A model generated the notes under the pieces. The model saw only the letters and a program-made list of their open reading frames with translations. It was not told where the DNA came from and did no database searches. A DNA stretch of 64,000 bases, taken from assembly GCA_027484965.1 (NCBI GenBank), contig JAIXRY010000015.1, forward strand, positions 1,622 to 65,621, read 5' to 3'. The translations under genes and the position numbers were made by a program. Of this stretch, positions 30,761 to 50,431 are shown piece by piece. Positions within the stretch are counted from its first letter, which is position 1, and every line of letters begins with the position of its first letter. The DNA is from a bacterium (GTDB taxonomy: Bacteria > Patescibacteriota > Minisyncoccia > Phycocordibacterales > UBA9973).

Positions 30761-30779
30761 GTCCGCCCTCTTGGATTCG
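30761..30779. repeat. 19-bp direct repeat of the tRNA-Ile(TAT) 3' end (att-like scar). The partner is at 32412-32430.
   Basis: GTCCGCCCTCTTGGATTCG is identical at both positions. The upstream copy is embedded in a long palindrome (30713-30768). Confidence 0.6.
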
Positions 30780-31428
30780 CCCGCGACTAATTAGTTTGCA
30801 AACTAATTGTCTGGGCACCAGCTCGTCTATTTTTCTGCTGAAAAATATGACTCCGCTGTTCGAAACCAAACGTACATGAAGCAGTTTATGTACTTAGGGC
30901 GAACCCTCGTTTCACTCGTGTCCACTCTGAATATTCTACTTCGAACCAAATTGAATGTGGATTCAAGTTTTTATCTGTTGAAATAGAGAAAATTAGAAGT
31001 GAACTAAAATCATTAAATTCATTATTAGTTATTGATGAGGATAATCGTTAGGTATTATTGATATTTTCCATTACTTTTGGAGTGAACAATCATCCAAATA
31101 AAGAATTGGTTAGGTTTCGATATGAAACACAATTAAACTCATAAATAAAAATAATTCAATTTTTGGTTAATGTTAAATTAGTTGTGCTTATAATTTTCAT
31201 AACACCCTAGTTGAATTTGGGCTAACTAAATTATATTTAAATATATTGACTTTATAAAAAAAGTAGAGATAAATCTGGTTAATTGTTTTGGTGTTGGCAG
31301 TTTTGATTATACTTTCGATTTTGAAGGTTTAAAAACAAATTCATTATTGAAAATACTGCAATTATTTTGTGGCTTTTTTAATTTCAATAAAATAAAAAAA
31401 GACACAACTAAAAGTCATGTCTTATATA

Positions 31429-32007: not shown

Positions 32008-32409
32008 ATTGTAAATGCTTGATTTACAACAGCATACACCTTTAACTACTTAGTGTCAATAATAAATTACCTATTACAATAGTAGAGAGAAATAATTCAT
32101 ATAAAAATCAGTCTTTATTTTAAGGTGAAATAATTTGTCCAGGTAGGTCAAAAAAGTTGAGTATTATTACCTTAAAAGTACAGCAAAAAACTATCACAAA
32201 ATTTTTGTCATAAATTGTGGTATTTGTTATAACAGAAATAAGTAATAACCTAAATAAGACTTTATCTAAATTTATCAAGTTTGTTGTTATAAAGATACAG
32301 TGGTTCGAATTTCCTGAAGGAATAGTCTTTGATGGAAACAAATTTTGAACCAACAAAATATGCAGTATTTTTAAGGTAAATGAGTTATTTTACGCAATTG
32401 ATTCCAAAA

Positions 32410-32486
32410 TGGTCCGCCCTCTTGGATTCGAACCAAGGACCCCAGAGGTATAAGCTCTGTGCTCTAACCAACTGAGCTAAGGGCGG
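32410..32486 (-). tRNA. tRNA-Ile (anticodon TAT / UAU), CCA encoded
   Basis: Manual fold gives a 7-bp acceptor CCGCCCT/AGGGCGG, D-arm GCTC-AGTTGGTTA-GAGC, anticodon stem CAGAG/CTCTG with loop CTTATAC, and T-arm CTTGG-TTCGAAT-CCAAG. Confidence 0.7.
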
Positions 32487-32605
32487 ATGTGTCATTTATT
32501 AACTAAAATTGTTAATCTGTTAATGACTGTAATTATAGATTAAAAATCAACAATTATCAACAATATGTAAATTATATCATTAAAATGGTATAATTTATTG
32601 GTAGT

Positions 32606-33172
32606 ATGAATAAATCTAATAAAGCATTTACACTCATCGAACTCCTTATAGTTATTGCAATCATTGGCGTTCTTGCGTCTGTTGTTCTTGCAAGTCTTAA
32701 TTCTTCTAGGAATAGAGCTGATGCGGCTTTTGTAAAACAACAAGCAGATCAGATTAAAAAAGAATTTGAAATTTACTATGCTTCAAATGGAAATAGATAT
32801 GGCTTCTGGGCAAGTAATATGAATTTACAGAGTCCATATACATCAGCCGGGTTTACAAGTATCCACGCAGGTGCTGGTCATTGTTATGTACCTTTTGGAA
32901 GAGTGGATACAAATATTACAAGAATGGTAGGTAAGGCAATGGAAAAAACAAATATTAATTTGACTGGAGGTAGTAATGGGGGAGGTGTTGGTTTTGGTTT
33001 CTGGTGTAGAGTATCTCCAGATGGTCAATCTTACGCATTCGCTTTTGTTAATATGAAGAGTGGTCCAAATATTTATTGTGTTGATTCAAGTGGAAATATA
33101 AAAGAATCTAACAATGCTTCTAGTGTTGATCCTATTAGTACTCATATGGCAAATCCTGTGACTTGTATATAA
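32606..33172 (+). CDS. Type IV pilin-like protein (paralogue of 30095..30688; shares AFVKQQADQIKK)
   Basis: KAFTLIELLIVIAIIGVL prepilin motif. Confidence 0.85.
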   Translation: MNKSNKAFTLIELLIVIAIIGVLASVVLASLNSSRNRADAAFVKQQADQIKKEFEIYYASNGNRYGFWASNMNLQSPYTSAGFTSIHAGAGHCYVPFGRVDTNITRMVGKAMEKTNINLTGGSNGGGVGFGFWCRVSPDGQSYAFAFVNMKSGPNIYCVDSSGNIKESNNASSVDPISTHMANPVTCI

Positions 33173-33212
33173 TTTATACATAAGTCTTTTTTGTTATAAT
33201 ATAAATACAATT

Positions 33213-33746
33213 ATGTTTAGTAATAAAAAAGCATTTACTCTTTTGGAACTCCTTGTTGTCATTGCGATCATCGGCGTTCTTGCGGCTATTGTGATGGCAA
33301 GTTTGAATAGTGCGAGAGTGAAAGCAAGAGATGCGCGTCGTCTTCAAGATATAAAAACCATCCAGACTAATTTAGAAATATATTACAATACATATAATAG
33401 TTATCCGCCAACTCCTACAGGTGGATGGATTCATAGTTCAGAAACAACATGGGATGGTCTAGAAAATTCTATGGGCATGAAATTGCCAAGAGACCCTGTA
33501 AATCAGGCTTCACCTTGGTTAAATGATCAATCTAGAGCATGGTCTTCAGATCAAAGGTTATTCATGTACGATTATTTGTCAGGAAGCGTACAGAATGGGT
33601 GTGCTACAGGAACTTTTTATTGGCTTGTCTATCGTCTTGAAAAAGGGAATACTCCTGTAAATGAAAGTCCAGGTGTTTTTATGTGCGATGGATCTACTTT
33701 TAAAGCTGTAAATGGTGCAATAACTGTTGGTGCGAATTCAAAATAA
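33213..33746 (+). CDS. Type IV pilin-like protein
   Basis: KKAFTLLELLVVIAIIGVLAAIVMASLNSARVKARD. Confidence 0.85.
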   Translation: MFSNKKAFTLLELLVVIAIIGVLAAIVMASLNSARVKARDARRLQDIKTIQTNLEIYYNTYNSYPPTPTGGWIHSSETTWDGLENSMGMKLPRDPVNQASPWLNDQSRAWSSDQRLFMYDYLSGSVQNGCATGTFYWLVYRLEKGNTPVNESPGVFMCDGSTFKAVNGAITVGANSK

Positions 33747-33782
33747 AAATCATATTTTAAAAAATCTGTTATAATTAATAGT

Positions 33783-34250
33783 ATGAAAAAAGGATTCACT
33801 CTCCTCGAACTCCTAGTCGTCATTGCAATCATTGGCGTTCTTGCTGCTATTGTTATGGCGAGCTTAAATAGCGCTAGAGTGAAATCAAGAGACGCAAAAC
33901 GAGTGTCTGATATACGACAAATTAAAGTTGCGCTTGATTTGTACTTTAACGATTTTGGATATTATCCTGATTGTTCTGGTAATGATGTATGTTCCAGTAC
34001 TGGATACTCTGGTTCTATATATAATTTAAGTATTGTTCCAAACTATATAAAAAATATAAGTAGTGACCCTAGAAATATATCAGGTCAGTATGGTTATTAT
34101 TATGCAAGGACTTACAAGAAGGCGGGGAGTAGTTATATATATACAGGATTAAGTACAGATTATATACTTGCTACAAGACTTGAAAATACAAGTAATGGAT
34201 CATTTGGGGGTTGGGACAATAACTTTTTAAACTATATAGAAGGAAATTAA
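33783..34250 (+). CDS. Type IV pilin-like protein
   Basis: MKKGFTLLELLVVIAIIGVLAAIVMASLNSARVKSRD. Confidence 0.85.
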   Translation: MKKGFTLLELLVVIAIIGVLAAIVMASLNSARVKSRDAKRVSDIRQIKVALDLYFNDFGYYPDCSGNDVCSSTGYSGSIYNLSIVPNYIKNISSDPRNISGQYGYYYARTYKKAGSSYIYTGLSTDYILATRLENTSNGSFGGWDNNFLNYIEGN

Positions 34251-34297
34251 AACTAAATGTATATTTAACTATGTATTAAAAATGTTATAATTATTTT

Positions 34298-34792
34298 ATG
34301 AAAAAAGCCTTTACTTTAATAGAGCTTCTTATAGTTATAGCAATCATTGGTGTTCTTGCTTCTATTATTCTTGCAAGTCTTAATTCTTCTAGAGATAAAG
34401 GTTCTGATACTGGAATGAAGACTGCTATTAATAGTCTTCGTTCTGCCGGTAATATTATCTTTAACGAGTATGGTTGTTTTGCTGGTTCTAGTGGGGGTTG
34501 TAATGGTACAAACCTTGGACCAGGAGCATGTTCTACACCAGGAAGTACTATTTTTAGTAATTTAGAATTTGCAAAAATAACTGCTCCTTATAGAACTAGT
34601 AGTGATTTTATAACTTCATGTAGTTCAACAACAGGTCAAACAGCTTGGGCTATTGCTATTAGACTTAAAAGTAATACAACAAAAGCATGGTGTGTTGATT
34701 CGCTTAATACCGCAAAAGAAATAAGTAATGGCGGAACAGCTTTTAATCAGACAACATTAAATAATGCTATTGTTGGAGGTGTTTGTAGTTAA
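34298..34792 (+). CDS. Type IV pilin-like protein
   Basis: MKKAFTLIELLIVIAIIGVLASIILASLNSSRDKG. Confidence 0.85.
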   Translation: MKKAFTLIELLIVIAIIGVLASIILASLNSSRDKGSDTGMKTAINSLRSAGNIIFNEYGCFAGSSGGCNGTNLGPGACSTPGSTIFSNLEFAKITAPYRTSSDFITSCSSTTGQTAWAIAIRLKSNTTKAWCVDSLNTAKEISNGGTAFNQTTLNNAIVGGVCS

Positions 34793-38980: not shown

Positions 38981-39037
38981 GGGACTCGCTGACTACATCG
39001 GTCAGTACTTTTTAATACAGGACTCGAACCAGTAATC
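38981..39037. repeat. Copy A of a short palindromic interspersed repeat (GGGACTCGCTGA(C/T)TACATC(G/A)G...) plus a tRNA-Asp-3'-end-like segment GGACTCGAACCAGTAA
   Basis: Shares 40 to 60 bp with copies at 39671-39738 and 39851-39925. Also 17/19 identity to the tRNA-Asp 3' half at 50366-50386. Confidence 0.5.
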
Positions 39038-39043
39038 TATATT

Positions 39044-39598
39044 TTAAATTCCTTTAAGAATCATTTCCATTTCTGGTATAACAGCACCACTCTTCATTTT
39101 AAACCTTTCTTCTGAAAAACGTTTTCCTGTATCTTTAAAACCTAACTTTTTATAGAATTCAATCGCATTCGTGTTGTATATAGCAACATCCACAACAGTA
39201 TCTTTATTCAAATCAAGAATAGTTTTAGCTTGATTCCAAAGTAGCGAACCAACACCCTTTCCTTGATATTCAGGTTTTATATAAATTAGACTTAATCTGT
39301 TTCCTTGTGTATTTTTTTCGATACGACAAATACCAAGTATGTTATTTGCATTTTTTGCAACAAAAAAAGTTTCACCCTCAGGAGGGTTTGTAATCGTTTC
39401 AATTCTTTTTTGTATTTTTTCTTCAGTGAATGCATTTTTAAATTTATCTTCAATGTCATCAATAGTTATTCCGAATTCTTCATTTGGATATGTAGTAAGC
39501 CATGTCTTATAAAAAACTTCTTGAATTTCTTTTGCATCATCTGGTTTTGCTAATAAAATCTTCACGTCCATTTTTTCTTGGTTTATTATCTTTTCCAT
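39044..39598 (-). CDS. GNAT-family N-acetyltransferase
   Basis: Acetyl-CoA binding motif A IYIKPEYQGKGVGSLLW. Confidence 0.75.
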   Translation of the reverse strand: MEKIINQEKMDVKILLAKPDDAKEIQEVFYKTWLTTYPNEEFGITIDDIEDKFKNAFTEEKIQKRIETITNPPEGETFFVAKNANNILGICRIEKNTQGNRLSLIYIKPEYQGKGVGSLLWNQAKTILDLNKDTVVDVAIYNTNAIEFYKKLGFKDTGKRFSEERFKMKSGAVIPEMEMILKGI

Positions 39599-39670
39599 CT
39601 ATATATTATATCAGCTCTAAAGTTCTATCACTATAAATAAAAACATCTAAGAAGAACTCAAATAGATACT

Positions 39671-39738
39671 GAGACTCTCTGATTATATCAGTAAGCACTT
39701 TTCAATCTCGTAAACTCGATAATGAAAAGTCTTTCGAT
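39671..39738. repeat. Copy B of the palindromic interspersed repeat
   Basis: GAGACTCTCTGATTATATCAGTAAGCACTTTTCAATCTCGTAAACTCGATAATGAAAAGTCTTTCGATG aligns with copy C at high identity. Confidence 0.5.
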
Positions 39739-39850
39739 GATTGAACTCGATCCTTACAGGATCAGTACACCTTTTCGATATATTCGAAACATATTTCTCA
39801 TATATAACGAAAAGCTTTTCGAGTCCCGCACGTAAGCCATGCAGATGGAC

Positions 39851-39925
39851 GGGACTCGCTGATTACATCAGCAGGTACTTTTCAATCTCATAAATTCGAT
39901 AATGAAAAGTCTTTCAAGTCCCGAC
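39851..39925. repeat. Copy C of the palindromic interspersed repeat. A reverse-orientation GAGTCCCG lies at 39821-39828.
   Basis: GGGACTCGCTGATTACATCAGCAGGTACTTTTCAATCTCATAAATTCGATAATGAAAAGTCTTTCAAGTCCC. Internal stem GGGACT...AGTCCC. Confidence 0.5.
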
Positions 39926-39963
39926 GTGAGTGAAGCAGTTCACTCACTACCTTTCTGTGTATT

Positions 39964-40003
39964 AAATAAAAATAACTGAGAAGAACTCAGTTATTTTTAT
40001 TTA
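39964..40003. terminator. Palindromic terminator downstream of the minus-strand TA pair
   Basis: AAATAAAAATAACTGAGAAGAACTCAGTTATTTTTATTT. Confidence 0.5.
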
Positions 40004-40090
40004 TGCGCGGACTAGTAAACGATGTGGGAACTGCGATACGACAACGTAATGGTTATATTTATATACCAACCTTAAAATAAAAATCTCAAA

Positions 40091-40549
40091 TTAGTCTATT
40101 TTTGTATATCCGTATGCAAAAAAAGATTTTAACCTTCCTATAGTTTCTCCTTGAAACTCGACCTCGCTATCCTTAACTTCCTTTTTATGTTTTATTGAAG
40201 CAAGAACTATATGCTTACCATTGATACAATACATAATTCTTAAGCCATAACGAGCACCTTCCTTATCTACTGCCCATCTCATTTTCCAAAGAACCCAATC
40301 TTCTGATAAAAATGGCTGTTGTCCATTTTTATCATTATTAGGTATTTCATTTGGTGTACTGAACTTATTTTTAATTGTACTTGAAATCTGCCTTAAAATT
40401 GGAATAGTAGATATTTTCTCTGAAACAGAAAGTTTTTCGAACTCATCCTGAGTTAAGTCACACTCTAAAAAAGTGGGTTTTATATGTTTAGAAAGTTTTT
40501 TGACGTCTTTCCAAAAATCAGGGCAAGTAAATAGGGTGCAATCATCCAT
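40091..40549 (-). CDS. Candidate toxin: 152-aa protein with a C-terminal RelE/ParE-fold-like core, encoded directly downstream of the Panacea-domain gene
   Basis: C-terminal GARYGLRIMYCINGKHIVLASIKHKKEV resembles the RelE/ParE beta-sheet core (yRi.Y.i....i.il.i.H.k). The roughly 90-aa N-terminal extension is of unknown function. A 9-bp gap separates it from the upstream gene. Confidence 0.4.
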   Translation of the reverse strand: MDDCTLFTCPDFWKDVKKLSKHIKPTFLECDLTQDEFEKLSVSEKISTIPILRQISSTIKNKFSTPNEIPNNDKNGQQPFLSEDWVLWKMRWAVDKEGARYGLRIMYCINGKHIVLASIKHKKEVKDSEVEFQGETIGRLKSFFAYGYTKID

Positions 40550-40558
40550 TTTAGTAAT

Positions 40559-41077
40559 CTAAGCATTTTGATAATCAGGATATTCTTCAACCAAGTTGTA
40601 AGCGGTATTATATTCTACTACTCCTCCTTCATTAGCTGAAAGATAAGGTATTTGTTTGTGAGTAATATCTGCCAATATATTATAAGAATAGTTTGCGTAT
40701 TTATTTAAAACATACTTAACTGTTTTAATCTCCTTAGCATCTAGCCCTACATTAACATTATCTTTTGGGCAATACTCAAACTGACCTTTCTTTTCTATTA
40801 GACCACTACGTACAAGTACGTTTAGATCGGCATTAAAGGAACGCGCCAAAGGACCATATGTTCTCTTTTCATAAATACTTTCAATGTCAGAAATCGGTTC
40901 ATCATTAAAAGCATAGTGAATAAAATCAGAAAAGTATTGAAACTTTGCTAATTTAATTTTATCGTCAATACCGTTAGTTTCTTGAATTATTGTATATAGA
41001 AGTTTTTGAGATTTAGTGAGGTCCATACTTATATTATTATACACTAATCTAGTAAAGGAATGTAATTCCAAAATCAA
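40559..41077 (-). CDS. Panacea-domain (DUF4065, SocA-like) putative antitoxin. True start probably MDLTKSQ.
   Basis: QKLLYTIIQ...KRTYGPLARSF follows the KLqKLLYf...W.yGPv pattern of DUF4065. Confidence 0.5.
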   Translation of the reverse strand: MILELHSFTRLVYNNISMDLTKSQKLLYTIIQETNGIDDKIKLAKFQYFSDFIHYAFNDEPISDIESIYEKRTYGPLARSFNADLNVLVRSGLIEKKGQFEYCPKDNVNVGLDAKEIKTVKYVLNKYANYSYNILADITHKQIPYLSANEGGVVEYNTAYNLVEEYPDYQNA

Positions 41078-41229
41078 GTGTGAATAACATAATATAGTAT
41101 AATTTATATTATGTCAAGTATTATAGTACTTTGTCAGTCATTATAAAATTAAAGACAAGCATAAAACTACTTTTTTATATTTAAAACTTTCTTAACTTAA
41201 TGATATCAATCAATAAAGAATGGTCAAGA

Positions 41230-43521
41230 TTAAATTAAAATATCACTCAAGTTTTTCCAACCCTTAAGAGCTGTGGTGTACTCATATTCGGCGCTAGTAT
41301 TGATTTTCCAGCCATTTGAGCCATCTTGAACAGCTATACCGCCATAGTAACCTTTCTTACTTTTGAGCCACGCTTGGAGCGATTCAGCGCGTTCTTTCGC
41401 CCCTTTTGCAGTATCTCCACCTTTAGTATCAATAATGTAGATACCTTTTTTAGTTTTTATAATCCAATCAGGGTAAAACAAACTCTCTTTATTCTTTGTT
41501 GTGTCGTGATAGGGAATAGAAAAAAACTCGCTACCTAAATCACCATTCTTATACCACCAAATAATAGAGTCATTTTCTTCAAGAGATTTTATAAAGTTTG
41601 TTTCATTTTTTCTGCCAGTATATTCTTTCTCAATAAAAAATGGTTGCATAGCACTTTTCTTAACTTTCATTTCTTCATATTGGTCAGTATAAAAAAGTGA
41701 TGGTCTTGGTATTTCAATTTGTTCGGTCCTCTTTGAGCGATCTGATTTACGGTTTACTTCTTGCTCTCGAATCGGACGATATGTCGCTAATGCTTTACCG
41801 ATAACATTACTTAAAACACTATTTACCTTTAGAAAATCACCGACAACAATATGGTATATTTCTAATCTTTGTTCTTTCAATAATCCAAGAAGCCACACAT
41901 TCAAAGCGGTCTTTAATTTACCCCAAGAACGCTCTGGAGCAAACTTTTTATCCTCATCAATTTGCTTAGCAATACTATTGAAACAAAACAGATTATATAA
42001 TCTTTCTAAATCGTGCTGAGACATTTCTTGCTCATAACTACTACCTTCAGCAAGAAGCTCTTGTTTGAAGTTATCGTAATCATCAATCTCAACATCAACA
42101 ATCAAACCATTCGTCACTCTTTTATTTAAGACAAGTTTCTTATCAGTCAATTTTTTTATGATATTTGCTTTTGTGTCTTTCTCAGAAATACTAAAATACT
42201 CATTAGCTGTTTCCTTGAAAGTTTCTTGAAAACTATCACCTAAGTCATTGTAATCAGTTCGGCTCATAAACACAGAATCAAGGACTATTGGCTCAACAGA
42301 CGGGTTACGATAACTACTATTTATTGCTGGTCTATTTTGGTCAGCAGATTTTGAATATCCTACAAGCACCTCATTGCGTTTATAGTTTGTATATAAATAA
42401 CCAAGATTAAGTTCTGGTATTGCGAAATGTGTACCTAGTGGCATACGCAATATACGCCCTACTGTTTGAATAGCAAAAGTAGCATTCTTTATTTCTCTAA
42501 ACATAACTAAGACACTTGCTCGTGGACAATCCCAACCAGTAGCTACTGCTTGTTTAAATAGTAAAAAAGAAACTGGAGAATTGTGACTTTCTATATCCTT
42601 AAGATTAACCTTGTCGTCAGATAGCCAGACCGCTATTTCGTCTTCTGTAATACCTTTAGCTTTTAGAAAACTAATAATGAAACCTTGTTTATTATCATTT
42701 GTACCCTTACTTGCTTTGTCATCGTTTGGTAATTGAATTAAAACTAAAGGATTTATATCAAGTTTTAGTTTATCCTTATAAAAATCTAAAAGTTCTTTTC
42801 TTTTATTAAAAGCTAAAGTGAGTAATGCATCACTATCATTCAAATCTTTCATTTCTTCTAAATCTTCTTTTGTTTGAAAAACGATTTTCTCTTTAATCAA
42901 TCCCTCTCTAACGACATCTTTGCGATCCACATCAACAGTAATACCTTTGGTTTGAGGAGTAGCAGAAACACCAATAATGATTCTTGGCTTAATAACATTC
43001 TTGATTAAATCACTCGCTAGAACTGTATCTGAAGCAATATGTTCTTCATCAATAATCAACACAACATCACGCTTAAGTAAATGTGTGTTTTCTAAATACA
43101 TATCAAAAGTAGTATTAGCTTCACCTTCAGTACGAAGTTTCCTATTGTCTTTTGATCTTGAAACAAGTTTTTGCCAGTTTATAAAAAACACTCCATTTTT
43201 AGGTAGATTCCCGTCTCGTAAATTATTCATATCCACAAGAGGATTTTCACTCGCTCCACCATAATAAGAAAAAAGTTTCTCTTTTGACTGCATTGCGAGA
43301 GAATCTGAGTTTGTTATCCAAATAAAACTAACATTAGCACTAGAAAATCTTGGATCAGAAACAATATCTCTTAAGAACTGAGCCATCATTATTGTTTTAC
43401 CTGAACCAGTAGGAGATTTGAAAGTCAGGTTCACATTAGTATCGCCAAGTTTCCATAAAGTTAGAAACTTATCTTTAAGTTGTGATATGGCTGTTTCTTG
43501 AAATGGTTTTAGTGTAAGCAT
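41230..43521 (-). CDS. res: Type III restriction enzyme Res subunit (SF2 helicase plus C-terminal PD-(D/E)xK nuclease)
   Basis: Helicase motif I KSPTGSGKT. DEAH-like LIIDEEH. C-terminal nuclease motif YPDW...IYIIDTKG (PD...D.K). Immediately downstream of mod in the same operon. Confidence 0.7.
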   Translation of the reverse strand: MLTLKPFQETAISQLKDKFLTLWKLGDTNVNLTFKSPTGSGKTIMMAQFLRDIVSDPRFSSANVSFIWITNSDSLAMQSKEKLFSYYGGASENPLVDMNNLRDGNLPKNGVFFINWQKLVSRSKDNRKLRTEGEANTTFDMYLENTHLLKRDVVLIIDEEHIASDTVLASDLIKNVIKPRIIIGVSATPQTKGITVDVDRKDVVREGLIKEKIVFQTKEDLEEMKDLNDSDALLTLAFNKRKELLDFYKDKLKLDINPLVLIQLPNDDKASKGTNDNKQGFIISFLKAKGITEDEIAVWLSDDKVNLKDIESHNSPVSFLLFKQAVATGWDCPRASVLVMFREIKNATFAIQTVGRILRMPLGTHFAIPELNLGYLYTNYKRNEVLVGYSKSADQNRPAINSSYRNPSVEPIVLDSVFMSRTDYNDLGDSFQETFKETANEYFSISEKDTKANIIKKLTDKKLVLNKRVTNGLIVDVEIDDYDNFKQELLAEGSSYEQEMSQHDLERLYNLFCFNSIAKQIDEDKKFAPERSWGKLKTALNVWLLGLLKEQRLEIYHIVVGDFLKVNSVLSNVIGKALATYRPIREQEVNRKSDRSKRTEQIEIPRPSLFYTDQYEEMKVKKSAMQPFFIEKEYTGRKNETNFIKSLEENDSIIWWYKNGDLGSEFFSIPYHDTTKNKESLFYPDWIIKTKKGIYIIDTKGGDTAKGAKERAESLQAWLKSKKGYYGGIAVQDGSNGWKINTSAEYEYTTALKGWKNLSDILI

Positions 43522-43525
43522 AAAA

Positions 43526-45214
43526 TTATAGACGATTTATTTCTTTATAAACTTCAAGGATAGGTTCAGGAATATCCTCGACACGAATCAAACTTGAACT
43601 ATATTCATTCTTATACTCATTTTTACCCCAACCAAAAACATAAAGAACTGCTGGAGTTTTTTCTTTCTCTAGCTTAGAAATAAGTTCTTTAATTTTTGAC
43701 TTATCTTCTTTGAAGTAAATAGCTGTCTTTTTATTAACGCCTTCAAAAACCTGATACCATTCATTTTTCTCTATTTCATTGAGGGTGTCCTCACGAACAG
43801 CAATCATTTCACCTGCTTGATAAGTGACTTTAATTTTGGCTTCATCAGAAATCTTATGCAGTTTATCTACATTTACAAGATCAGTTTTGTAATACGATAA
43901 ATTACCACCAAGACCATCAACCTTTTCGCCTTTCTTATTTTTGTATCCCTTAATAACTCTTTTTATACGCTCATAAGTCACTTCCTCACAGATATTATTT
44001 TCATTGTTAGTACAAAGAATAAACTTGCGATTACCACCATCTTGCTTATTGAGTTCAAGTACGGCGTGTCCTGTTGTACCAGAGCCAGCAAAGAAATCTA
44101 GGACAAGACCATTTTTATTCTGTTCTACAGCAGTAAGACATTCTTTAACTAAATGCAGTGATTTTGGAAATGGGAACTTGTCAGGAAGTATTTGTGATAG
44201 TAGCTGAGTGCCATAGATATTTGCATTAAACTTAGAATCATCCCAAACTGTTTTTCTAATATAGTTTTTCTTTCCACGTAAAATGGAGTATTGCTCACCT
44301 TGTTTTTTGGCAACAAGTTCATCAGCTATTGTTTCAACAGTATCTCTAGCAAATCTCCATCTTCGCTCTATTCCGTTTCCGTCTATAGGGTAAATATAAA
44401 TAAGACCATTTTTTAGCTCATTTGCTAATTTTGGATGAAATGTATCTTTGGGGACATCTCCAAATCCAACAATTTTATTTCCATCAAATATAATTGAATA
44501 AAAACAATTAGGTGACCCTTCTCTTTTTGAGTTTTCTTTACCCCAATCTCTAAATGGAGTCAGTTCCTCACCAGAACGCAATTCTGGATTTATATATCCA
44601 CTTTGTTTTGGATAAACAAAATAAATGTATTCGTGATTATAAGAAAAGTTTGTTCCTTGAATTCCTCCTTGGTTGTGAATTACAGTTACACAGTCTATTG
44701 CCCAGCCATAAAAGATTTCTTGTAGTAAAAGACCTAATGTATTTAATTCGTTCTCATCAATAGCACACACTAACGCACCCTTAGGAGAGAGTAATCCCTT
44801 AGCGAGTTTTAATCTTGAGTACATCATAGACAACCATTTACTGTGCCTAAAATCATCTTCTTTGTCTATATAATCATTATTATAACGCCAACTATTATTT
44901 CCAGTATTATATGGGGGATCAATATAAATAACATCAATCTTGCTTTTGTGTGTATAGTTCAAAACAGAAAGAGAGTGATAATTGTCACCCTCAATCAAAA
45001 GATTGCTTGGCGCTGAATTATCAGAAACAATTTTTCTATTCTTAACTTCTCTAAGAATTGGTATATTCTCTTTGCATTGTAAAACAACATCTTCTGGTTT
45101 ATCTTCCCAGATGAGTCCATATTTTTTATCCTTGAGTTTTTTAATTTCTAACTCAAGTTCTGAAATACGAGCAAGAAGCTCTTTTTCGTGTAATTGTAAT
45201 TTATTTGTAGACAC
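43526..45214 (-). CDS. mod: Type III R-M Mod subunit (beta-class N6-adenine DNA methyltransferase) with N-terminal coiled-coil and about 160 extra C-terminal residues
   Basis: Motif IV IYIDPPYNTG precedes motif I DFFAGSGTTGHA, the beta-group order. Gene order is mod then res. Confidence 0.75.
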   Translation of the reverse strand: MSTNKLQLHEKELLARISELELEIKKLKDKKYGLIWEDKPEDVVLQCKENIPILREVKNRKIVSDNSAPSNLLIEGDNYHSLSVLNYTHKSKIDVIYIDPPYNTGNNSWRYNNDYIDKEDDFRHSKWLSMMYSRLKLAKGLLSPKGALVCAIDENELNTLGLLLQEIFYGWAIDCVTVIHNQGGIQGTNFSYNHEYIYFVYPKQSGYINPELRSGEELTPFRDWGKENSKREGSPNCFYSIIFDGNKIVGFGDVPKDTFHPKLANELKNGLIYIYPIDGNGIERRWRFARDTVETIADELVAKKQGEQYSILRGKKNYIRKTVWDDSKFNANIYGTQLLSQILPDKFPFPKSLHLVKECLTAVEQNKNGLVLDFFAGSGTTGHAVLELNKQDGGNRKFILCTNNENNICEEVTYERIKRVIKGYKNKKGEKVDGLGGNLSYYKTDLVNVDKLHKISDEAKIKVTYQAGEMIAVREDTLNEIEKNEWYQVFEGVNKKTAIYFKEDKSKIKELISKLEKEKTPAVLYVFGWGKNEYKNEYSSSLIRVEDIPEPILEVYKEINRL

Positions 45215-45216
45215 AA

Positions 45217-45362
45217 AAGGGATGGGTTTTTTGTCTTGTAAAAGCTGGCTACGAAATCACAGAACCCCGCGCCAGCCTGAGCTTTTTACAGCCCCATATC
45301 AGTTTCCCGATATGACCCATCCCTGAGTAGCTGAACGCGGGGTTCAGTATCAGGGATGGGTG
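45217..45362. promoter_or_regulatory. GC-rich cluster of interleaved inverted repeats in the mod / 45478-ORF divergent intergenic region
   Basis: GGGATGGGT appears forward at 45219 and 45353, and as its reverse complement ACCCATCCC at 45315. CAGAACCCCGCG (45260) pairs with CGCGGGGTTCAG (45337). The GC content is very unusual for this AT-rich genome. Confidence 0.45.
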
Positions 45363-45477
45363 TTTTATACCGTATCTATCAATTTTTACATTAAATAGAC
45401 CTTAGGTAAATTAAATTGTCTTGTCTTTTTAGGACAATTTTAGTATAGCAAAAAACACTTAATTTTCATAGTCAAAT

Positions 45478-46791
45478 ATGATAAAATGCTTATGGTTTAA
45501 TACCAATTACAATTACTCAATGAATAAATTAAATCTAAAAGTTAAAGAGCAGATTGCGAGAGTTATTGGAGACAATTTTACTACTAATGAAATTGTTAAT
45601 GTCTTTACTGACGCGAATGTAAAAACAGATATATCTCTTTATGCAAAATGGAAGATAATTCTAAACGGGTTTAGTAATACATCTTCAGAAGAAGTGCTTT
45701 TTTATATTATTGAACAGTTTTGTCATCCTCTTAATTTTCCAGACACAGAAAGCAGATCTGACTTCATTATTAAATTAAACGAGATTCTTAAATATGAGTT
45801 TTTAGATTTAGTAGCCACAGAAAGAACAGTAAAAATTGTTGATATAAACGATGAAACTATACAAGAAAGAATACGAAAACCAGCAAAAACTTCAACTGAT
45901 TATATAGTAGATGCATTAAACTTTTTTAAGAATGAATACAATAAGGTTAGGATTTCTGGTTTAGATTATGAGTACTCATTAGGAGTAAATGCTAGTAGCG
46001 AAGAATTAGAATTAGACGATGGAGAAGAATATAACGCAAAACTTGAAGCCATAAAACGACTAAATAATGTTGGTTTAATTACTGAATATAAAATTGAAGA
46101 AAGAATGGAAAGTGGAGGATATTATGTTTGGGATTATGCTATTTGTAAAATAGACGAGCAAAAAATTACTGGTCAAGAAGAACCATTAGCTACAGATGCT
46201 GACATAAAATCAATAACCAAGAAAATAATACACGAACATACTCATAGATTTGAAAATAGTATTCAAGAAAAAGGAATTGATCTAAATATAAAAAATAAAG
46301 AAGATAATGTGGTTATAAAAAATAAAAAGAAAATCACATTACCTAGATTTCCAAGAACAGAATGGTCTAAAGTTTCAATAACACTTCTTGATGATACGAA
46401 TATGCTTCTTTCTGATGGAAAAAGCACGAAACCATCTTCTTTTGAGGGGATAGGTTGTGAGGATGGTAGAAATGGTAAACCAGATGAAAACTGGGCTTTT
46501 TTAGTAAGATTAGCTAAGGGTGATGGTCAAACAATTCCTATTTCCAAAAAAGAACGAGAGAGTAAGAAAAAACAAAAACAGAAGATTACAGACATTTTAA
46601 GGAAGATATTTCAAAACGAAACCGACCCTTTTGAAAATGAGTCAGGAGGAGTTTACAATGCAAAGTTTAATATAAAATATAATACTGACAAGAAAGAAAA
46701 AACTGATAGTAGATACTCTGATTTAGAGGATGTATTCTCTGAAATGACAGCGTCAACCGAAGAAGATATGAATAGTGATTTTTCACAATAA
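45478..46791 (+). CDS. Hypothetical protein (437 aa), island cargo adjacent to the R-M system
   Basis: Long ORF with a K/E-rich low-complexity C-terminus. No recognised catalytic motif. Confidence 0.45.
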   Translation: MIKCLWFNTNYNYSMNKLNLKVKEQIARVIGDNFTTNEIVNVFTDANVKTDISLYAKWKIILNGFSNTSSEEVLFYIIEQFCHPLNFPDTESRSDFIIKLNEILKYEFLDLVATERTVKIVDINDETIQERIRKPAKTSTDYIVDALNFFKNEYNKVRISGLDYEYSLGVNASSEELELDDGEEYNAKLEAIKRLNNVGLITEYKIEERMESGGYYVWDYAICKIDEQKITGQEEPLATDADIKSITKKIIHEHTHRFENSIQEKGIDLNIKNKEDNVVIKNKKKITLPRFPRTEWSKVSITLLDDTNMLLSDGKSTKPSSFEGIGCEDGRNGKPDENWAFLVRLAKGDGQTIPISKKERESKKKQKQKITDILRKIFQNETDPFENESGGVYNAKFNIKYNTDKKEKTDSRYSDLEDVFSEMTASTEEDMNSDFSQ

Positions 46792-46917
46792 TATAAAATA
46801 GAGAAAAGTATAGAAGCCACAACATATTTCTGTTGTGGCTTTTTGCCCTTGTGATTTTTCGTCCCCTGTAAATGAGAGCTCGAAACTCTCATATTACAAA
46901 TCATTAGAAAAATTACT

Positions 46918-47181
46918 ATGAAAAGTAAAAAGATTTCTATAAGCGATCCATCGTCTGTGTTCACCACTTATGACTTAGGTTGCAGTACTGCACTTTTATG
47001 TGCAGATTTTGAGCTTTTGACGATTGAGAAAGACGATCCAAGAAAAGCTCTTTTTGTATTCCATAAGAAAAGTGGAATAGAAGAAACAGCAAATAAGTAT
47101 TTTGCTGATAAATTAGATGTCAAAGCAAGGTCGTATTTTGACAACTTGAAAGCTCTAAAAAATAAGCTGTACGGAAACTAA
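46918..47181 (+). CDS. DUF5659-like small protein
   Basis: TTYDLGCSTALLCADFELLTIEKDDPRKALFVFHK...YFDNLKALKNKLY matches the DUF5659 pattern common on mobile elements. Confidence 0.5.
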   Translation: MKSKKISISDPSSVFTTYDLGCSTALLCADFELLTIEKDDPRKALFVFHKKSGIEETANKYFADKLDVKARSYFDNLKALKNKLYGN

Positions 47182-47184
47182 TCT

Positions 47185-47391
47185 ATGATGTTGTCAGATG
47201 AAAACATTATAGTATTTCAAAAACTCTATAAAGAGCATTTTGGAAAAGACATAAGTAAAGAAGATGCATATAAACAAGGCACAAAGTTTTTACGATTGAT
47301 GTCTTTGGTGTATCGTCCGATGACACGAGAAGAGTTTCAGTTTGCTCAAGAACGACAAGCAGAATCTTTGCGAAAGCAAAGAATTCCTTGA
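47185..47391 (+). CDS. Small hypothetical protein (68 aa)
   Basis: ORF tightly packed between the DUF5659 gene and the Rep-like gene (4-bp overlap). Confidence 0.35.
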   Translation: MMLSDENIIVFQKLYKEHFGKDISKEDAYKQGTKFLRLMSLVYRPMTREEFQFAQERQAESLRKQRIP

Positions 47392-48608
47392 AAAACACCG
47401 ACAACATAAAAATCATTATGGATACTATTATTATAAAAATACACGGTCCCAATAAGTTTGATTTTAAAGATAGGTCACTATTTCTACCAGAGATAAATCC
47501 TAGAAAATATGCAGATTTGTCACCTAGTGAAGTACGATCACGAAACTCGTCGCGCCCGTACCTCAGGAAGTTTGTCCTATATCCTAAGGCAAGCGATGAC
47601 TACATACCTAGAGTTGAAGTATTTGAAACTTTATTAAAAGATCGTAATTTCGTTGTTTATATTATGAAAATCACTTTTTCAGCCCCAAAACTACTTTATT
47701 GGAATAGTTTGCAGGAGGTAGGAGAAAAAGATAAAGATAAACTGTTTTATGCTTTGCGGATGTCTCTTGAGAATGTTGGTATCGGGGTAGAGACTGAATC
47801 TCTCGCGAACGCAACACTGGAGGCTGTGCACGTATGTAAAAATATACCTTTACCTAAAACGATAAAAATGCGAGATATAATCAATGAATTGGCGAAAATA
47901 GATATTAGTAAGGCATTTGATGTATCGGACAAGCAAGACAAAAAAGGTGCACGGGTGCTTAATATACACTCGGGGACAGTGGAATGGTCCTTGTACGATA
48001 AGATTTCAGATTCTATTCGTCCCAATAATAAACGTAGTGATAAGGGGCGTATGGGTGAAGAAAAAACAATTGTTGGAATATATAACCTACAAGACAGAGA
48101 AGTATTCCGTTACGAGTATCGTTTAAAGAAAACACAAACAACAAAAAGAGAAATAAATAAATTACTTAAAAGAGATTCCAAAACACCAGTCATTTTTAAA
48201 GATCTCTTTACTCCTGATTTGCTCAAAAAATTAGTACTCAATTCTTGGTACTTTATAGTAAATAAACCAGAAAATCAGCTTGCTCTATTTAGTGAAATAA
48301 ACAAATTAAAACTTTTACTGCACATACTCTCTGAGGCAAGTAAAAATGGTAAAAAAGCTCATAGTATGGATAATGCTTTTGTCTCATATGGACTAGCGAC
48401 TGTTATGCACGACGTTGGAGCAAAAGAGGTAAAAGGAGCTGTATTCGATGTCTGGAATAAAGATCATCCTGAGCGACTTACAAAGAAAATAAAGACAGCA
48501 TTAGATTTAATGAAAGGACTACCAATATCTCACAATATCGCTTTCATCGACTCTGAACTTGAAAAGTTTGAACTTATTAGCTTGGCTTCATTACAAAAAG
48601 GTATATAA
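47388..48608 (+). CDS. Putative rolling-circle replication initiator (Rep_trans / pT181 RepC-like)
   Basis: WSLYDKISD...VFRYEYRLKK parallels RepC FIRIYNKKQE...LWRVEIELKRD. This is a recalled-consensus comparison only. Confidence 0.4.
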   Translation: MKNTDNIKIIMDTIIIKIHGPNKFDFKDRSLFLPEINPRKYADLSPSEVRSRNSSRPYLRKFVLYPKASDDYIPRVEVFETLLKDRNFVVYIMKITFSAPKLLYWNSLQEVGEKDKDKLFYALRMSLENVGIGVETESLANATLEAVHVCKNIPLPKTIKMRDIINELAKIDISKAFDVSDKQDKKGARVLNIHSGTVEWSLYDKISDSIRPNNKRSDKGRMGEEKTIVGIYNLQDREVFRYEYRLKKTQTTKREINKLLKRDSKTPVIFKDLFTPDLLKKLVLNSWYFIVNKPENQLALFSEINKLKLLLHILSEASKNGKKAHSMDNAFVSYGLATVMHDVGAKEVKGAVFDVWNKDHPERLTKKIKTALDLMKGLPISHNIAFIDSELEKFELISLASLQKGI

Positions 48609-48728
48609 TGTAAACATCTACCCGTTTTTATGCAAAAGTATTTTTATTATAGACAACTTATGTTTTCTATACAGATGGGCATCCTTGTCCGCTTTGCTTT
48701 TGCAAACGGGTAGAGCAAGGATGCCCTT

Positions 48729-50384
48729 TTGTGTACTATAATAATTATGAATAACGATTACTCAAAAATTAAATACTTTATTTACGCTCGAAAATCTCAA
48801 GAGGGAGAGGAGAAGCAAGTTCAGTCTATTCCTGATCAATTACGAGAAGATGATATTGTCGCTAAACGATACAATATCAAGCCTGTAGGGATTTTAACTG
48901 AAGAAGGATCTGCAAAAGAACCAAACAAGAGACCTGTATTTGAAGAAATGCTTGCCCGTATAAAAAATGGTGAAGCAAATGGAATTATCTGTTGGAACTT
49001 AAACCGTTTATCAAGAAATCCAGTAGATAGCGGAAAACTTCAATGGATGCTCCAAGAGGGTTTAATTCAATCAATTTTAACACCATCCAGAGAATACAAA
49101 CCGAGTGACAATGCAATTATTTTTAGTGTGGAAAGTGGTGGAGCAAATCAATATATTCTAGATTTGAAAGTGGGAGTACGGAGAGGATTAAACAGTAAAA
49201 TCATTAAGGGGCAAGCGCCAATACTTGCACCGCTTGGATATTTGAATACTAAGCACGAACTTCGCGGAGAAAATTACATAATAAAAGATCCTGAACGATA
49301 TGAACTTGTTAAGAAAGCTTGGGAGTTGATGCTTACTGGGGAATACTCTATTCCTAAGCTTTTAAAGATAGTAAATAATGACTGGGGGTTGAGAACACGA
49401 AAAAGAAAACATCGTGGCGGTGGAGAGGTTAATAAAAGTACTATGTATGGTGTTTTTACTAATATCTTTTATACAGGACTTTATTTATATAAAGGAAAAA
49501 TAGAAAATGGTATACACGAACCAATGATTACTATTGAGGATTTTGATAAAATGCAACAGATTCTTGGGAGGTATGGAAAACCAAGAGTTAAAAGTCATAT
49601 TTTTACCTACACAGGTACTATGATATGTGGGGAGTGTAATAGTGCAATCACTGCGACTACAAAGACCAAGTTAGTAAAAACTAAAAATGAATTGAAGGAT
49701 TATACTTTCTACTATTGTTCTCGTCGCAAGAAAGGTGCAGAAAAATGTACCCAGAGGGAATATATACCACTTAAGGAGATGGAGGATATCATAAAAGAAG
49801 AATTAGAAAAATATACGATTTCAGAAAAGTTTAGAGATTGGGCTTTGAAGATTTTGGAAGAGGAGCACACAGGTGAAGTGTTGGAACGTGAAGCTATCTA
49901 TAAGTCACAATTGAACGCATTAGACGTATCTCAAAAGGAGCTTGATAATCTAATAACTATGAGAATGCGAGAACTAATAGATGATGATCAATATACTTCA
50001 CGAAAAAAGGAGCTAAGTCAGACAATTGCTGTAATGAAGCAGAAAGTATCTGAAACTCAAAGTAGGGCACAAAATTGGGTCCAATATACTGAACAGGTGT
50101 TTGAGTTTGCACATATGGCTAAAGCAAGATTTGAAGACCCAAAAACTACCGTAGATGACAAGAAAGGTATCTTTATGGCTCTTGGTTGGAACTACATCAT
50201 AAAAGACAAAAAACTTTATATTTCTCAATGTGATTTACTAGAACCGATAGTAAAAAATCGTGACGCTGTAGAAAGTGAAATAAGTCGGTTGGAACTGGAA
50301 GAAAACATTGGTACAGAAAGACAAAACACCCCTTTCGGAGTGGCTTGTCCATTACTGCGCAGTCGGCGGGACTCGAACCCGTAA
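48729..50384 (+). CDS. Large serine recombinase (serine integrase). Start possibly at 48747.
   Basis: N-terminal resolvase catalytic domain (YARKSQEG with catalytic Ser, ...R..R), recombinase domain, and zinc ribbon CGEC...C. The 3' end overlaps tRNA-Asp on the opposite strand. Confidence 0.8.
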   Translation: MCTIIIMNNDYSKIKYFIYARKSQEGEEKQVQSIPDQLREDDIVAKRYNIKPVGILTEEGSAKEPNKRPVFEEMLARIKNGEANGIICWNLNRLSRNPVDSGKLQWMLQEGLIQSILTPSREYKPSDNAIIFSVESGGANQYILDLKVGVRRGLNSKIIKGQAPILAPLGYLNTKHELRGENYIIKDPERYELVKKAWELMLTGEYSIPKLLKIVNNDWGLRTRKRKHRGGGEVNKSTMYGVFTNIFYTGLYLYKGKIENGIHEPMITIEDFDKMQQILGRYGKPRVKSHIFTYTGTMICGECNSAITATTKTKLVKTKNELKDYTFYYCSRRKKGAEKCTQREYIPLKEMEDIIKEELEKYTISEKFRDWALKILEEEHTGEVLEREAIYKSQLNALDVSQKELDNLITMRMRELIDDDQYTSRKKELSQTIAVMKQKVSETQSRAQNWVQYTEQVFEFAHMAKARFEDPKTTVDDKKGIFMALGWNYIIKDKKLYISQCDLLEPIVKNRDAVESEISRLELEENIGTERQNTPFGVACPLLRSRRDSNP

Positions 50385-50431
50385 CCTCCCGCGTGACAGG
50401 CGGGTGCTCTAACCAGTTGAGCTACGACTGC
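50358..50431 (-). tRNA. tRNA-Asp (GTC)
   Basis: Manual fold gives acceptor GCAGTCG/CGACTGC, D-arm GCTC-AACTGGTTA-GAGC, anticodon stem CCCGC/GCGGG with loop CTGTCAC, and T-arm ACGGG-TTCGAGT-CCCGC. No encoded CCA. Confidence 0.75.

Follow-up and report, generated by a model that had tools for sequence, protein, structure and literature searches.

A gpII-like Rep protein in the probable backbone of a tRNA-integrated element of Patescibacteria

Our analysis favors a model where positions 45478-48608 of a 64,000-nucleotide stretch of DNA (the window) are the backbone of an integrative element of ~10.5 kb (~39859-50375), inserted in the 3' end of a tRNA-Asp gene. The host of the element is a Patescibacteria (CPR, Paceibacteria-type) genome. 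Five parts probably make up the backbone: a modular 437-aa protein; a three-gene operon (DUF5659, 68-aa protein, Rep); a conserved single-strand structured element; a large serine integrase; and a conserved control region 5' of the operon. Rep itself likely represents a full-length but strongly diverged homologue of filamentous-phage gpII, the initiator that nicks DNA for replication (II/X family, Rep_trans superfamily), with its active-site residues intact, and its family is an unannotated new deep branch of gpII/Rep_trans initiators, missed by standard annotation.

The comparison covered 102 distinct rep loci, nearly all labelled CPR/Patescibacteria. A large serine integrase lies 3' of rep in 45 of 53 loci, while the DUF5659 gene and the 68-aa gene are found 5' of it in 61/80 and 46/80 loci, respectively. 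Together these four genes make up a module kept in ~100 loci with variable cargo, and two conserved non-coding elements lie one on either side of the rep operon. The original prediction had labelled the 437-aa, DUF5659, and 68-aa genes as cargo, which does not suit a module so conserved while the real cargo changes. It had correctly placed four open reading frames, at 45478-46791 (437 aa), 46918-47181 (87 aa), 47185-47391 (68 aa), and 47388-48608 (406 aa from TTG), between a type III restriction-modification (R-M) pair and a large serine recombinase (ORF 48729-50384). The tight packing that it described, with 3-4 bp overlaps among the last three genes, is not seen: a 3-nt gap separates the end of the 87-aa gene (47181) from the start of the 68-aa gene (47185); the 4-bp overlap between the 68-aa gene and rep needs the TTG at 47388, and from the ATG at 47418 the gap is 26 nt; and a strong hairpin followed by a T-run (46814-46844) splits the 437-aa gene from the other three.

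At one end the element carries a Resolvase, Recombinase, and Zn-ribbon integrase abutting a tRNA gene, at the other a partial repeat of that tRNA. The integrase (48747-50384, + strand; Resolvase, Recombinase, and Zn_ribbon_recom domains) matches PHROG 95 integrase (E 5e-55). Its start is likely the ATG at 48747, not the TTG at 48729 given by the ORF finder, because homologue N-termini align from MNNDYSKIKYF. The last 28 nt of the gene overlap the 3' end of the integration target, tRNA-Asp(GTC) (50357-50431, - strand; ARAGORN and Rfam). Such overlap recurs in most loci, the tRNA being tRNA-Asp, -His, -Gln, -Asn, or -Glu. Within the tRNA-Asp, CGGGACTCG at 50367-50375 is the candidate attR core. 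On the left, a candidate attL with a presumptive boundary (39850-39886, + strand) was read from the sequence: in a tRNA-Asp 3'-end-like remnant, GCAGATGGACGGGACTCG (39841-39858), the 9-nt CGGGACTCG is common to the tRNA, and the left end of the element, CTGATTACATCAGCAGGTACTTTTCAAT, follows. Decayed older copies of the left-end sequence occur at 38981 and 39671, and a second tRNA-Asp fragment at 39020-39038 (2 matches vs 0.02 expected). In other loci, direct repeats of the tRNA 3' end lie 7-11 kb upstream of the tRNA; these are exact in L005, L007, and L010, and imperfect in the window. A terminal-overlap search found no circular contigs among ~115 loci, and no attP junction was found.

The cargo of the element in the window is all on the - strand. 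A Panacea/SocA-type antitoxin gene (40559-41077; PF13274 SocA_Panacea, E 5.7e-10) is adjoined by a 152-aa ORF (within 40091-41077), a putative toxin that matches no family in Pfam, PHROGs, NCBIfam, or PADLOC. The type III R-M system comprises Res (41230-43521) and Mod (43526-45214), recognized by the Pfam families ResIII and N6_N4_Mtase and by REase_III and MTase_III of PADLOC, with E down to 7e-76. This system is found in some related elements only, and elsewhere the cargo is a probable copper-resistance (copper-efflux) operon. A LOOT RNA (Rfam RF03000; 45279-45408; 67.2 bits, gathering score 46.4) precedes the start codon of Mod by 65 nt and shares its strand. It stands likewise ahead of Mod in loci L006 and L022 and is missing from L001; LOOT RNA thus appears to go with the R-M cargo, not with the backbone.

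The 437-aa protein (45478-46791, + strand) is modular. Its family displays a helical AbiJ_NTD3-like domain at the N-terminus (~20-125), a conserved α/β domain in the middle (~135-233) followed by a HEHTHRFENSIQEK motif, and a C-terminal domain (~280-400) of which at least two exchangeable types exist among homologues. Of 67 homologues, 13 have an N-terminal domain that matches AbiJ_NTD3 (PF18860); the window copy has no such match in Pfam at E 0.1 or better, nor anything significant by direct annotation with Pfam, PHROGs, NCBIfam, PADLOC, or PDB sequences. The view that nothing in the protein can be assigned needs correcting in part, in the light of the N-terminus of its relatives. That N-terminus is also the sole hint of the accessory defence or anti-defence role once thought plausible for it, the protein having no PADLOC match and no significant PHROG match. 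AbiJ abortive-infection proteins combine AbiJ N-terminal domains with a C-terminal HEPN nuclease, whereas this family shares the AbiJ_NTD3-like N-terminus only; neither a HEPN match nor a PADLOC match nor a strong structural match was obtained. The protein is not a piece of a known phage structural gene. As a weak guess, it may be a DNA-binding regulator.

A conserved non-coding control region (46775-46917, + strand) lies 5' of the DUF5659-68aa-rep operon. It contains two GTGATTTTTC(R)C boxes (46775-46786 and 46851-46862), which alone have no window-wide significance, the terminator of the 437-aa gene (46814-46844), and a hairpin, ATGAGAG-ctcgaaa-CTCTCAT (46872-46892), followed by ATTACAA and ATTACTATG. 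At least 16 loci keep the region, and some of the changes in its hairpin are compensatory; in locus L010 an unrelated hairpin takes its place. From these sequence features, the control region is a candidate operator/promoter and/or double-strand origin. The first gene of the operon (46918-47181, + strand) encodes the 87-aa DUF5659 protein (PF18903, E 1e-10, above the curated cut-off). Fourteen residues are invariant in its family, which matches no sequence of solved structure in the PDB and has no mention in the literature searched. In the 68-aa protein (47185-47391, + strand) conservation lies in the N-terminal 45 residues; it has no family match in Pfam, PHROGs, or NCBIfam, and no meaningful PDB sequence match.

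Rep, a predicted nicking initiator of the Rep_trans/Phage_CRI superfamily, is encoded at 47418-48608 (+ strand). We place its start at the ATG at 47418 (Met-11 of the 406-aa ORF), yielding 396 aa, because its 247 homologues are all 393-400 aa long and begin MDT..., with M1 and D2 invariant; one 396-aa homologue is 100% identical across 98% of the 406-aa query. A catalytic domain (~1-255) and a helical C-terminal domain (~260-396) are predicted. The narrower family comprises 247 clusters at 90% identity, and the family profile search gathered 913 clusters (50% identity) at E <= 1e-3. The Y-D-K ... R-x-E-Y-R arrangement first noticed in the sequence is indeed present, with Y193, K195, D198, R231, Y232, E233, and R235 (numbered from Met-11) invariant in 109 homologues. 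In the broad family, with a mean column identity of 29%, Y193, K195, and E233 are invariant and D2, D198, R231, and R235 are at least 90% conserved. The predicted catalytic Tyr, Y193, lies in a predicted strand (188-194), within a Y-x-K on a β-strand with D198 three residues past K195, as in the catalytic-Tyr motif of Rep_trans proteins; E233 falls within the R-x-E of another predicted strand (229-236), and D2 at the start of strand 1. Rep_trans proteins have three carboxylate metal ligands on separate strands (D46, D142, and E214 in RepDE); in Rep, D2 and E233 are conserved, and the strand-6 position expected for the second ligand (D142) probably carries the invariant Asn N142. The catalytic Tyr, the Lys two residues on, the Arg-x-Glu, and the N-terminal Asp are thus kept, invariant or nearly so, in a strongly diverged family, as expected from selection for catalysis. 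This pattern makes it most improbable that the product of the rep-like gene has lost its nuclease activity and works for the adjacent serine integrase, be it as a DNA-binding regulator or as its recombination directionality factor, with the conserved structure 3' of rep as a plain regulatory leader of the integrase.

The fold of Rep, crescent-shaped and TBP-like, matches both solved Rep_trans proteins, and its Foldseek matches come from a series of accessions that includes a published Inoviridae Rep_trans initiator. By direct search the window protein shows nothing significant in Pfam, NCBIfam, PHROGs, PADLOC, or PDB sequences, and no Pfam model, Rep_trans included, matches it at E <= 0.1. Among 120 sampled distant relatives, PF05144 Phage_CRI is matched by 29 (best 1.8e-10) and PF02486 Rep_trans, weakly, by 4 (best 23.4 bits vs a cut-off of 29.6). 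With hhalign, the broad family alignment matches the M13 gpII family over 255 columns, reaching the C-terminal domain (probability 84%, E 7.7e-6). Neither the narrow family profile against the gpII family (probability 0.4%, E 0.16) nor the broad profile against a single gpII sequence (probability 1%) is significant, each aligning the same residues. The sequence link between Rep and gpII accordingly rests on the extended profile and on transitive matches, since the window protein and the narrow profile give no significant match. A match to PDB 7uek 'OT3' (E 2e-9) was set aside: it covers residues 336-399 of the helical C-terminus only and is gone with the family profile. Fold, Foldseek, the family matches of relatives, and the gpII profile alignment all bear out the proposed Rep_trans-superfamily initiator, and no confident homology to a non-Rep family was found. 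Its closest known relative is filamentous-phage gpII (II/X family), and not pT181 RepC, to which the protein had first been likened.

A gpII-like Rep might also be the remnant of a phage, the element being a degenerate prophage or satellite of an inovirus-like CPR phage that kept its replication and integration genes and is packaged by a helper, by analogy with the satellite RS1 beside CTXphi. Among the inoviruses reported from CPR, some have serine recombinases and toxin-antitoxin genes, and the small genes beside rep are arranged as in phage replication modules. We nevertheless consider such an origin very unlikely, given cargo of the genomic-island type (R-M, toxin-antitoxin, a probable copper-efflux operon) and no Zot/pI-like ATPase, coat-like, or PHROG-recognizable phage gene in the window element or the cargo regions examined. 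Relatives of Rep were likewise found neither in GenBank phages nor in PLSDB plasmids (tblastn), nor in IMG/VR scans that used either the family alignment or a distant member of the family.

The second conserved non-coding element, a covarying structure of ~140 nt that is undescribed, lies between rep and the integrase gene (48606-48749, + strand). A TATAAT box (48604-48609), invariant among loci, overlaps the rep stop codon. In helix A, 48616-48627 pairs with 48704-48715, enclosing a long nested hairpin (folding z -4.7 to -8.7); in helix D, 48669-48687 pairs with 48716-48734, interleaving with helix A. The two helices covary: in 19 of 31 pairs both sides have changed, and 95% of cells are paired, compared with 34-50% in slid controls. 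A search with the covariance model (R1) gives a single copy per locus, immediately 3' of rep, in 23 loci and a further 34 metagenome loci (57 in all), and helix D was confirmed again on this second set. The + strand folds better in 17 of 19 sequences, and no Rfam family matches. The element ends within 15 nt of the integrase ATG, and at least three loci in which rep directly adjoins int lack it. It is a candidate single-strand/double-strand origin or integrase RNA leader; it could also be purely an RNA leader or terminator of the integrase. A role as attP was ruled out, the element being inside the integrated DNA. ATAG-containing stretches in part of the structure resemble the nick sites of gpII and pT181, in some subgroups only, and we do not rely on them.

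The analysis itself shows the homology and fold of Rep, the conserved residues, the synteny, targeting of tRNA genes, and covariation within the non-coding structure; excision, nicking, the place of the origin, and rolling-circle replication are inferred. Most likely, the element undergoes excision and is then replicated as a rolling circle. The serine integrase would excise it as a double-stranded circle; Rep would bind an origin in either of the conserved non-coding elements flanking its operon and nick the circle, starting rolling-circle replication by host helicase and polymerase. The + strand-specific structure 3' of rep would either provide the origin for the complementary strand (single-strand origin) or form a leader that controls the integrase, and the type III R-M and Panacea toxin-antitoxin systems would be exchangeable cargo stabilizing the element.

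The main rival to this scheme, which we regard as unlikely, gives Rep the role of a conjugative relaxase, instead of or besides that of an initiator: after excision, Rep would nick an oriT in a conserved non-coding element, and the single strand, covalently attached to Rep, would pass through a coupling protein to the chromosomal monoderm-type type IV secretion system (T4SS) that is widespread among Patescibacteria, making this an integrative mobilizable element. The T4SS of Patescibacteria is homologous to monoderm machinery, yet relaxases were detected in 103 genomes only, and the Rep family is invisible to Pfam-type searches. The MOBT relaxases of the integrated elements ICEBs1, Tn916, and ICESt3 belong, like Rep, to the Rep_trans superfamily of nicking enzymes; once the element has been excised, NicK also drives its replication as a rolling circle. 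The layout too, in which an integrase is accompanied by a single nicking enzyme and small accessory genes, resembles that of the integrative mobilizable elements of Firmicutes, and a strand-specific structure would suit a transferred single strand. A coupling-protein-like ORF with TrwB_AAD_bind and TraG-D_C domains occurs in the window (9691-12426), in the chromosome 35 kb away; however, none of the elements examined holds coupling-protein or T4SS genes. Moreover, the best match of Rep in sequence and architecture (N-terminal catalytic and X-like C-terminal domain) is gpII, not MOBT, and whereas MOBT relaxases have an N-terminal HTH domain, the catalytic domain of Rep begins at residue 1. It is unlikely that the Rep family is the 'very different relaxase' missing for the widespread monoderm-type T4SS of Patescibacteria, with elements excised, nicked, and exported single-stranded. 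If it were, the interleaved + strand-specific structure would work on the strand being transferred, either to prime the complementary strand or in expressing the integrase early, and conjugative DNA exchange would be common in CPR, whose T4SS is currently thought to be co-opted for other roles.

Rep is nevertheless a concrete candidate for the relaxase reported missing from most T4SS-bearing patescibacterial genomes, and the two conserved cis elements are directly testable candidate origins. Mobile elements of CPR/Patescibacteria are poorly characterized; in the literature searched by keyword, apparently no integrative or replicative element of Patescibacteria corresponds to this module, and the window supplies a defined, recurrent integrative-element backbone. 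Since the element carries R-M, toxin-antitoxin, and probable metal-resistance genes, gene flow in these bacteria, whose genomes are tiny, may plausibly run through it.

Among known initiators, gpII of M13 (Phage_CRI PF05144 plus Phage_X PF05155) is the nearest to Rep. The two are of similar length (410 vs 396 aa), share two domains in the same order, begin alike (MIDMLVLRL vs MDT-I-I-I-K), and contain the collinear motifs S-x-P-K, Y-x-K-x-x-D/E, and R-x-E-x-R. In their alignment Y193, K195, R231, and E233 of Rep correspond to Y197, K199, R243, and E245 of gpII, which are invariant in gpII together with E202; it is through Tyr-197 that gpII becomes covalently joined to DNA (PMC5405960). Identity is, however, ~14-16%, the window protein falls below the Pfam model, and rep belongs to an island integrated at a tRNA gene, next to that of a large serine integrase and without virion or assembly genes; the filamentous-phage context (pI/Zot ATPase, coat, ssDNA-binding protein) is absent in the window element and the related elements examined. 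The plasmid initiators pT181 RepC/RepD and Geobacillus RepSTK1 (PDB 4CWC, 4CIJ) are more remote. The conserved residues of Rep agree with the RepDE motifs, namely RxYxK..E (R189-x-Y191-x-K193..E196), RxE, and the N-terminal Asp metal ligand; but R189, two residues before the Tyr, is absent in Rep, the window reading SLYDK, and H-x-x-K-N replaces the R-x-D-x-A-x-D of strand 6. Rep also lacks a Pfam Rep_trans match, its C-terminal domain differs, and its gene resides on an integrative element instead of a small plasmid. The arrangement of the locus finds its counterpart in archaea, where the Rep-Arvir initiators of pleolipoviruses and plasmids (DUF7845, PF25227; RepSNJ2, for example) have a Rep_trans fold not recognizable from sequence (PMC13107129). 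In the virus SNJ2 such a Rep works together with an operon that contains the integrase, and a conserved hairpin 3' of rep is required for replication (PMC13107129). Integration, an adjacent integrase, and a conserved hairpin-forming element 3' of rep are thus shared; the hosts differ (archaea vs bacterial CPR), the recombinase here is of the serine type, Rep has no wHTH middle domain, and DUF7845 matches neither the window Rep nor any of 120 family members. The Rep branch described here parallels, in bacteria, the Rep-Arvir family reported for archaea in 2026.

The gene rep (47418..48608, + strand) encodes a protein of 396 aa, here Rep, which has no significant match in Pfam, PHROGs, NCBIfam, PADLOC or PDB sequences and whose family is unnamed in every source consulted. 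The family comprises 247 clusters at 90% identity, with a mean column identity of 62%; when its profile is searched against 1.84 billion representatives, it extends to 913 clusters at E <= 1e-3. From the more distant members we took 119 sequences, 19-64% identical to Rep but mostly 20-30%, which together with Rep form a broad alignment; 29 of these 120 match Phage_CRI (PF05144; best E 1.8e-10) and four match Rep_trans weakly. An alignment of the family of gpII, the DNA-nicking replication initiator of the filamentous phage M13, was built for profile comparison: with hhalign, the broad Rep alignment matches it at 84% probability (E 7.7e-6) across 255 columns, reaching into the C-terminal (gpX) part, whereas the profile of the narrow Rep family gives no significant match to gpII. 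The aligned pairs (Rep/gpII) include Y193/Y197, K195/K199, D198/E202, R231/R243 and E233/E245, and all five gpII residues are invariant across its family. Tyr-197 of gpII is the residue covalently joined to the nicked strand (PMC5405960). The Rep pattern also fits the active site of the Rep_trans plasmid initiator RepDE (R-x-Y191-x-K..E, R212-x-E214 and an N-terminal Asp ligand), except that the strand-6 Asp of RepDE is seemingly replaced in Rep by an invariant Asn (N142). Judged from sequence, Rep is a new, unannotated family within the gpII/Rep_trans superfamily, its catalytic signature apparently intact. The profile match to gpII and this signature bear out the motif-based original prediction of a Rep_trans-like initiator; gpII is a nearer relative than pT181 RepC, to which the protein was then likened. 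The reading that we rank best, and consider reasonably probable, is that the element is integrative and, once excised, undergoes rolling-circle replication initiated by Rep through nicking. A satellite of a filamentous phage is quite improbable, and the idea that Rep is a non-catalytic regulator is if anything slightly less credible still.

The four open reading frames predicted at 45478-48608 are present as listed, but their arrangement is looser than had been proposed. The 437-aa gene (45478..46791) is set apart from the other three by a strong hairpin and T-run at 46814-46844, so that there is no single packed block, and the 87-aa gene, a DUF5659 member (PF18903, Pfam E 1e-10), is separated from the 68-aa gene by a 3-nt gap instead of overlapping it. 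A 4-bp overlap with rep would need a TTG start at 47388, giving the 406-aa product first described; since the homologues all have 393-400 aa and an N-terminus MDT..., with M1 and D2 invariant, and a 396-aa homologue is 100% identical over 98% of the 406-aa query, we place the rep start at ATG 47418. Upstream of the DUF5659 gene, the region 46775-46917 contains the GTGATTTTTC box twice, along with a conserved hairpin (46872-46892) and, after it, ATTACAA and ATTACTATG motifs; it is kept in at least 16 loci, and L010, one of the related rep loci, has an unrelated hairpin at the same place. This region and the structure downstream of rep are two conserved non-coding elements on either side of the rep operon, and one or the other may hold the nick site. 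To the left lie a type III R-M pair on the minus strand (Res 41230-43521, Mod 43526-45214) and, beyond it, a Panacea/SocA antitoxin next to a partner of 152 aa. On the opposite side follows a large serine recombinase with Resolvase, Recombinase and Zn_ribbon_recom domains (PHROG 95 integrase, E 5e-55), the last 28 nt of whose gene overlap the 3' end of tRNA-Asp (50357-50431, minus strand).

Much of this layout recurs elsewhere. We collected 34 rep loci from a set with one genome per species and 78 from JGI metagenomes; neighborhoods were counted over 102 distinct loci, with denominators that vary by feature. A large serine recombinase lies 3' of rep in 45 of the 53 loci with enough downstream sequence, L016 adding a divergent 46th; the DUF5659 gene is found 5' of rep in 61/80 and the 68-aa gene in 46/80, a BLAST-detectable relative of the 437-aa protein upstream in 24/66, and a Mod-like methyltransferase on the opposite strand in 21/44. 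Cargo varies from element to element; the genes earlier taken for cargo, those for the 437-aa protein, DUF5659 and the 68-aa protein, are instead, with rep and the integrase gene, the backbone of the element. Labelled rep-bearing records are nearly all CPR/Patescibacteria (Nomura-, Kaiser- and Adlerbacteria, Paceibacteria, Parcubacteria and generically labelled "Saccharibacteria" MAGs). The one record with a non-CPR label, in a Flavobacteriaceae MAG named Patiriisocius sp. (L035, 5204-6259), holds a truncated rep (residues 1-348, 44% identity) with a partial DUF5659 gene upstream, and may reflect a binning error or a rare transfer. Going by sequence motifs, the cargo of L005 (2738-6994) and L010 (3874-7882) probably includes an operon for a copper/heavy-metal P-type ATPase and a CsoR-like repressor, with metal-binding membrane proteins, and that of L007 (7844-8893) a reverse transcriptase that has a YADD motif and neighbors a truncated Res gene. 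LOOT RNA (RF03000, annotated in Rfam only as sRNA) occurs on the minus strand in the window (45279-45408), L006 (6579-6708) and L022 (7469-7596), in all three elements 18-65 nt 5' of the type III Mod start codon and on the same strand, which suggests a 5' leader or regulator of these methyltransferase genes; it was not found in L001, an element without R-M genes, nor at gathering score in L014 and L017, whose Mod is ~70% identical.

Between rep and the integrase gene lies a conserved structure (48606-48749) without a match in Rfam. Helix A (48616-48627 with 48704-48715) forms the base of a long nested hairpin of ~100-120 nt; helix D pairs a 5' arm in the apical region (48669-48687) with a partner just beyond helix A (48716-48734), and the two helices therefore interleave. 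Across 19 sequences 95% of cells are paired, against 34-50% in slid controls, with changes on both sides in 19 of 31 pairs, and hairpin z-scores range from -4.7 to -8.7. Searched with a covariance model of helix D, 23 genome and sample loci and 34 further metagenome loci each yield a single strong copy that invariably begins at the rep stop codon; in this second, metagenome set helix D is 97% paired, with both-side changes in 11/18 pairs. Because G-U/G-T pairs are common and A-C nearly absent, and because folding favors the + strand over the minus strand in 17/19 cases (by a mean of 5.7 kcal/mol), the functional form is a single + strand (RNA, or ssDNA that has been displaced) rather than a symmetric binding site in duplex DNA. 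At 48604-48609, and at the equivalent place in most related loci, a TATAAT(G) box overlaps the rep stop codon; it hardly varies, even when Rep ends in different residues. L016, L027 and L033 have a related box (TATAAT, TACAAT or GATAAT) away from the stop codon, still 5-7 nt ahead of helix A. The box may represent a -10 box or a remnant of coupling. The integrase ATG comes no more than ~15 nt after the structure, which is missing where rep and int abut (L018, L023 and L025); in the latter two the ATG of TAATG may serve as the integrase start, implying translational coupling.

In most loci the integrase gene and a tRNA gene (Asp, His, Gln, Asn or Glu) overlap at their 3' ends, and L005, L007 and L010 carry, 6.9-10.6 kb upstream, exact direct repeats of that tRNA end. 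The best attL candidate in the window is GCAGATGGACGGGACTCG at 39841-39858, resembling the tRNA-Asp 3' end and followed by left-end sequence, and we infer an element of ~10.5 kb with putative boundaries at 39859 and 50375. A 36-nt left-end-like sequence occurs three times in 38981-39886 (at 38981, 39671 and 39851), the first two copies being older; among them lie tRNA-Asp fragments at 39020-39038 and 39841-39858 and a GNAT acetyltransferase gene (39044-39598, minus strand). The two older copies, the second tRNA fragment and the GNAT gene, all within 38981-39706, look like scars left at this tRNA by repeated earlier insertions. Among the rep loci examined neither an excised circle nor an attP junction turned up, and plasmid, phage and IMG/VR collections gave no Rep relatives. 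Metagenome contigs often end at or just after the rep-int structure (L002, L042, L047, L061, L082 and others), that of L039 6 nt past the rep stop; such breaks, which probably reflect either strain variants with a common backbone or the inverted repeats, limit what assemblies can show of excised forms.

As the main alternative, or in addition, Rep could be a MOBT-like relaxase serving the monoderm-type T4SS of Patescibacteria, which is widespread in the group and whose relaxases are reported mostly missing. A coupling-protein-like 911-aa ORF in the same window (9691-12426, + strand; TrwB_AAD_bind E 2e-7, TraG-D_C E 1e-5) bears on this reading; the ORF is chromosomal, 35 kb from the element, and we hold the relaxase reading unlikely. 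Elsewhere in the window, at 30098-34400 and 21962-30052, a 100-nt segment encoding a type IV pilin-like N-terminus (consensus KAFTLIELLIVIAIIGVL) is present five times, with 68-84% identity to the reference copy, and its copies adjoin a 2696-aa ORF, typical CPR surface-protein content with no relation to the rep block.

Under rolling-circle replication, the element would excise and Rep would then nick it to start synthesis. Integrated elements with a Rep_trans-type initiator are already known, ICEBs1 with NicK being one example and SNJ2 with Rep-Arvir likewise another. What is new here is a deep Rep family that standard annotation misses, its fixed pairing, in CPR bacteria, with a serine integrase that targets tRNA genes, and a covarying structure previously undescribed.
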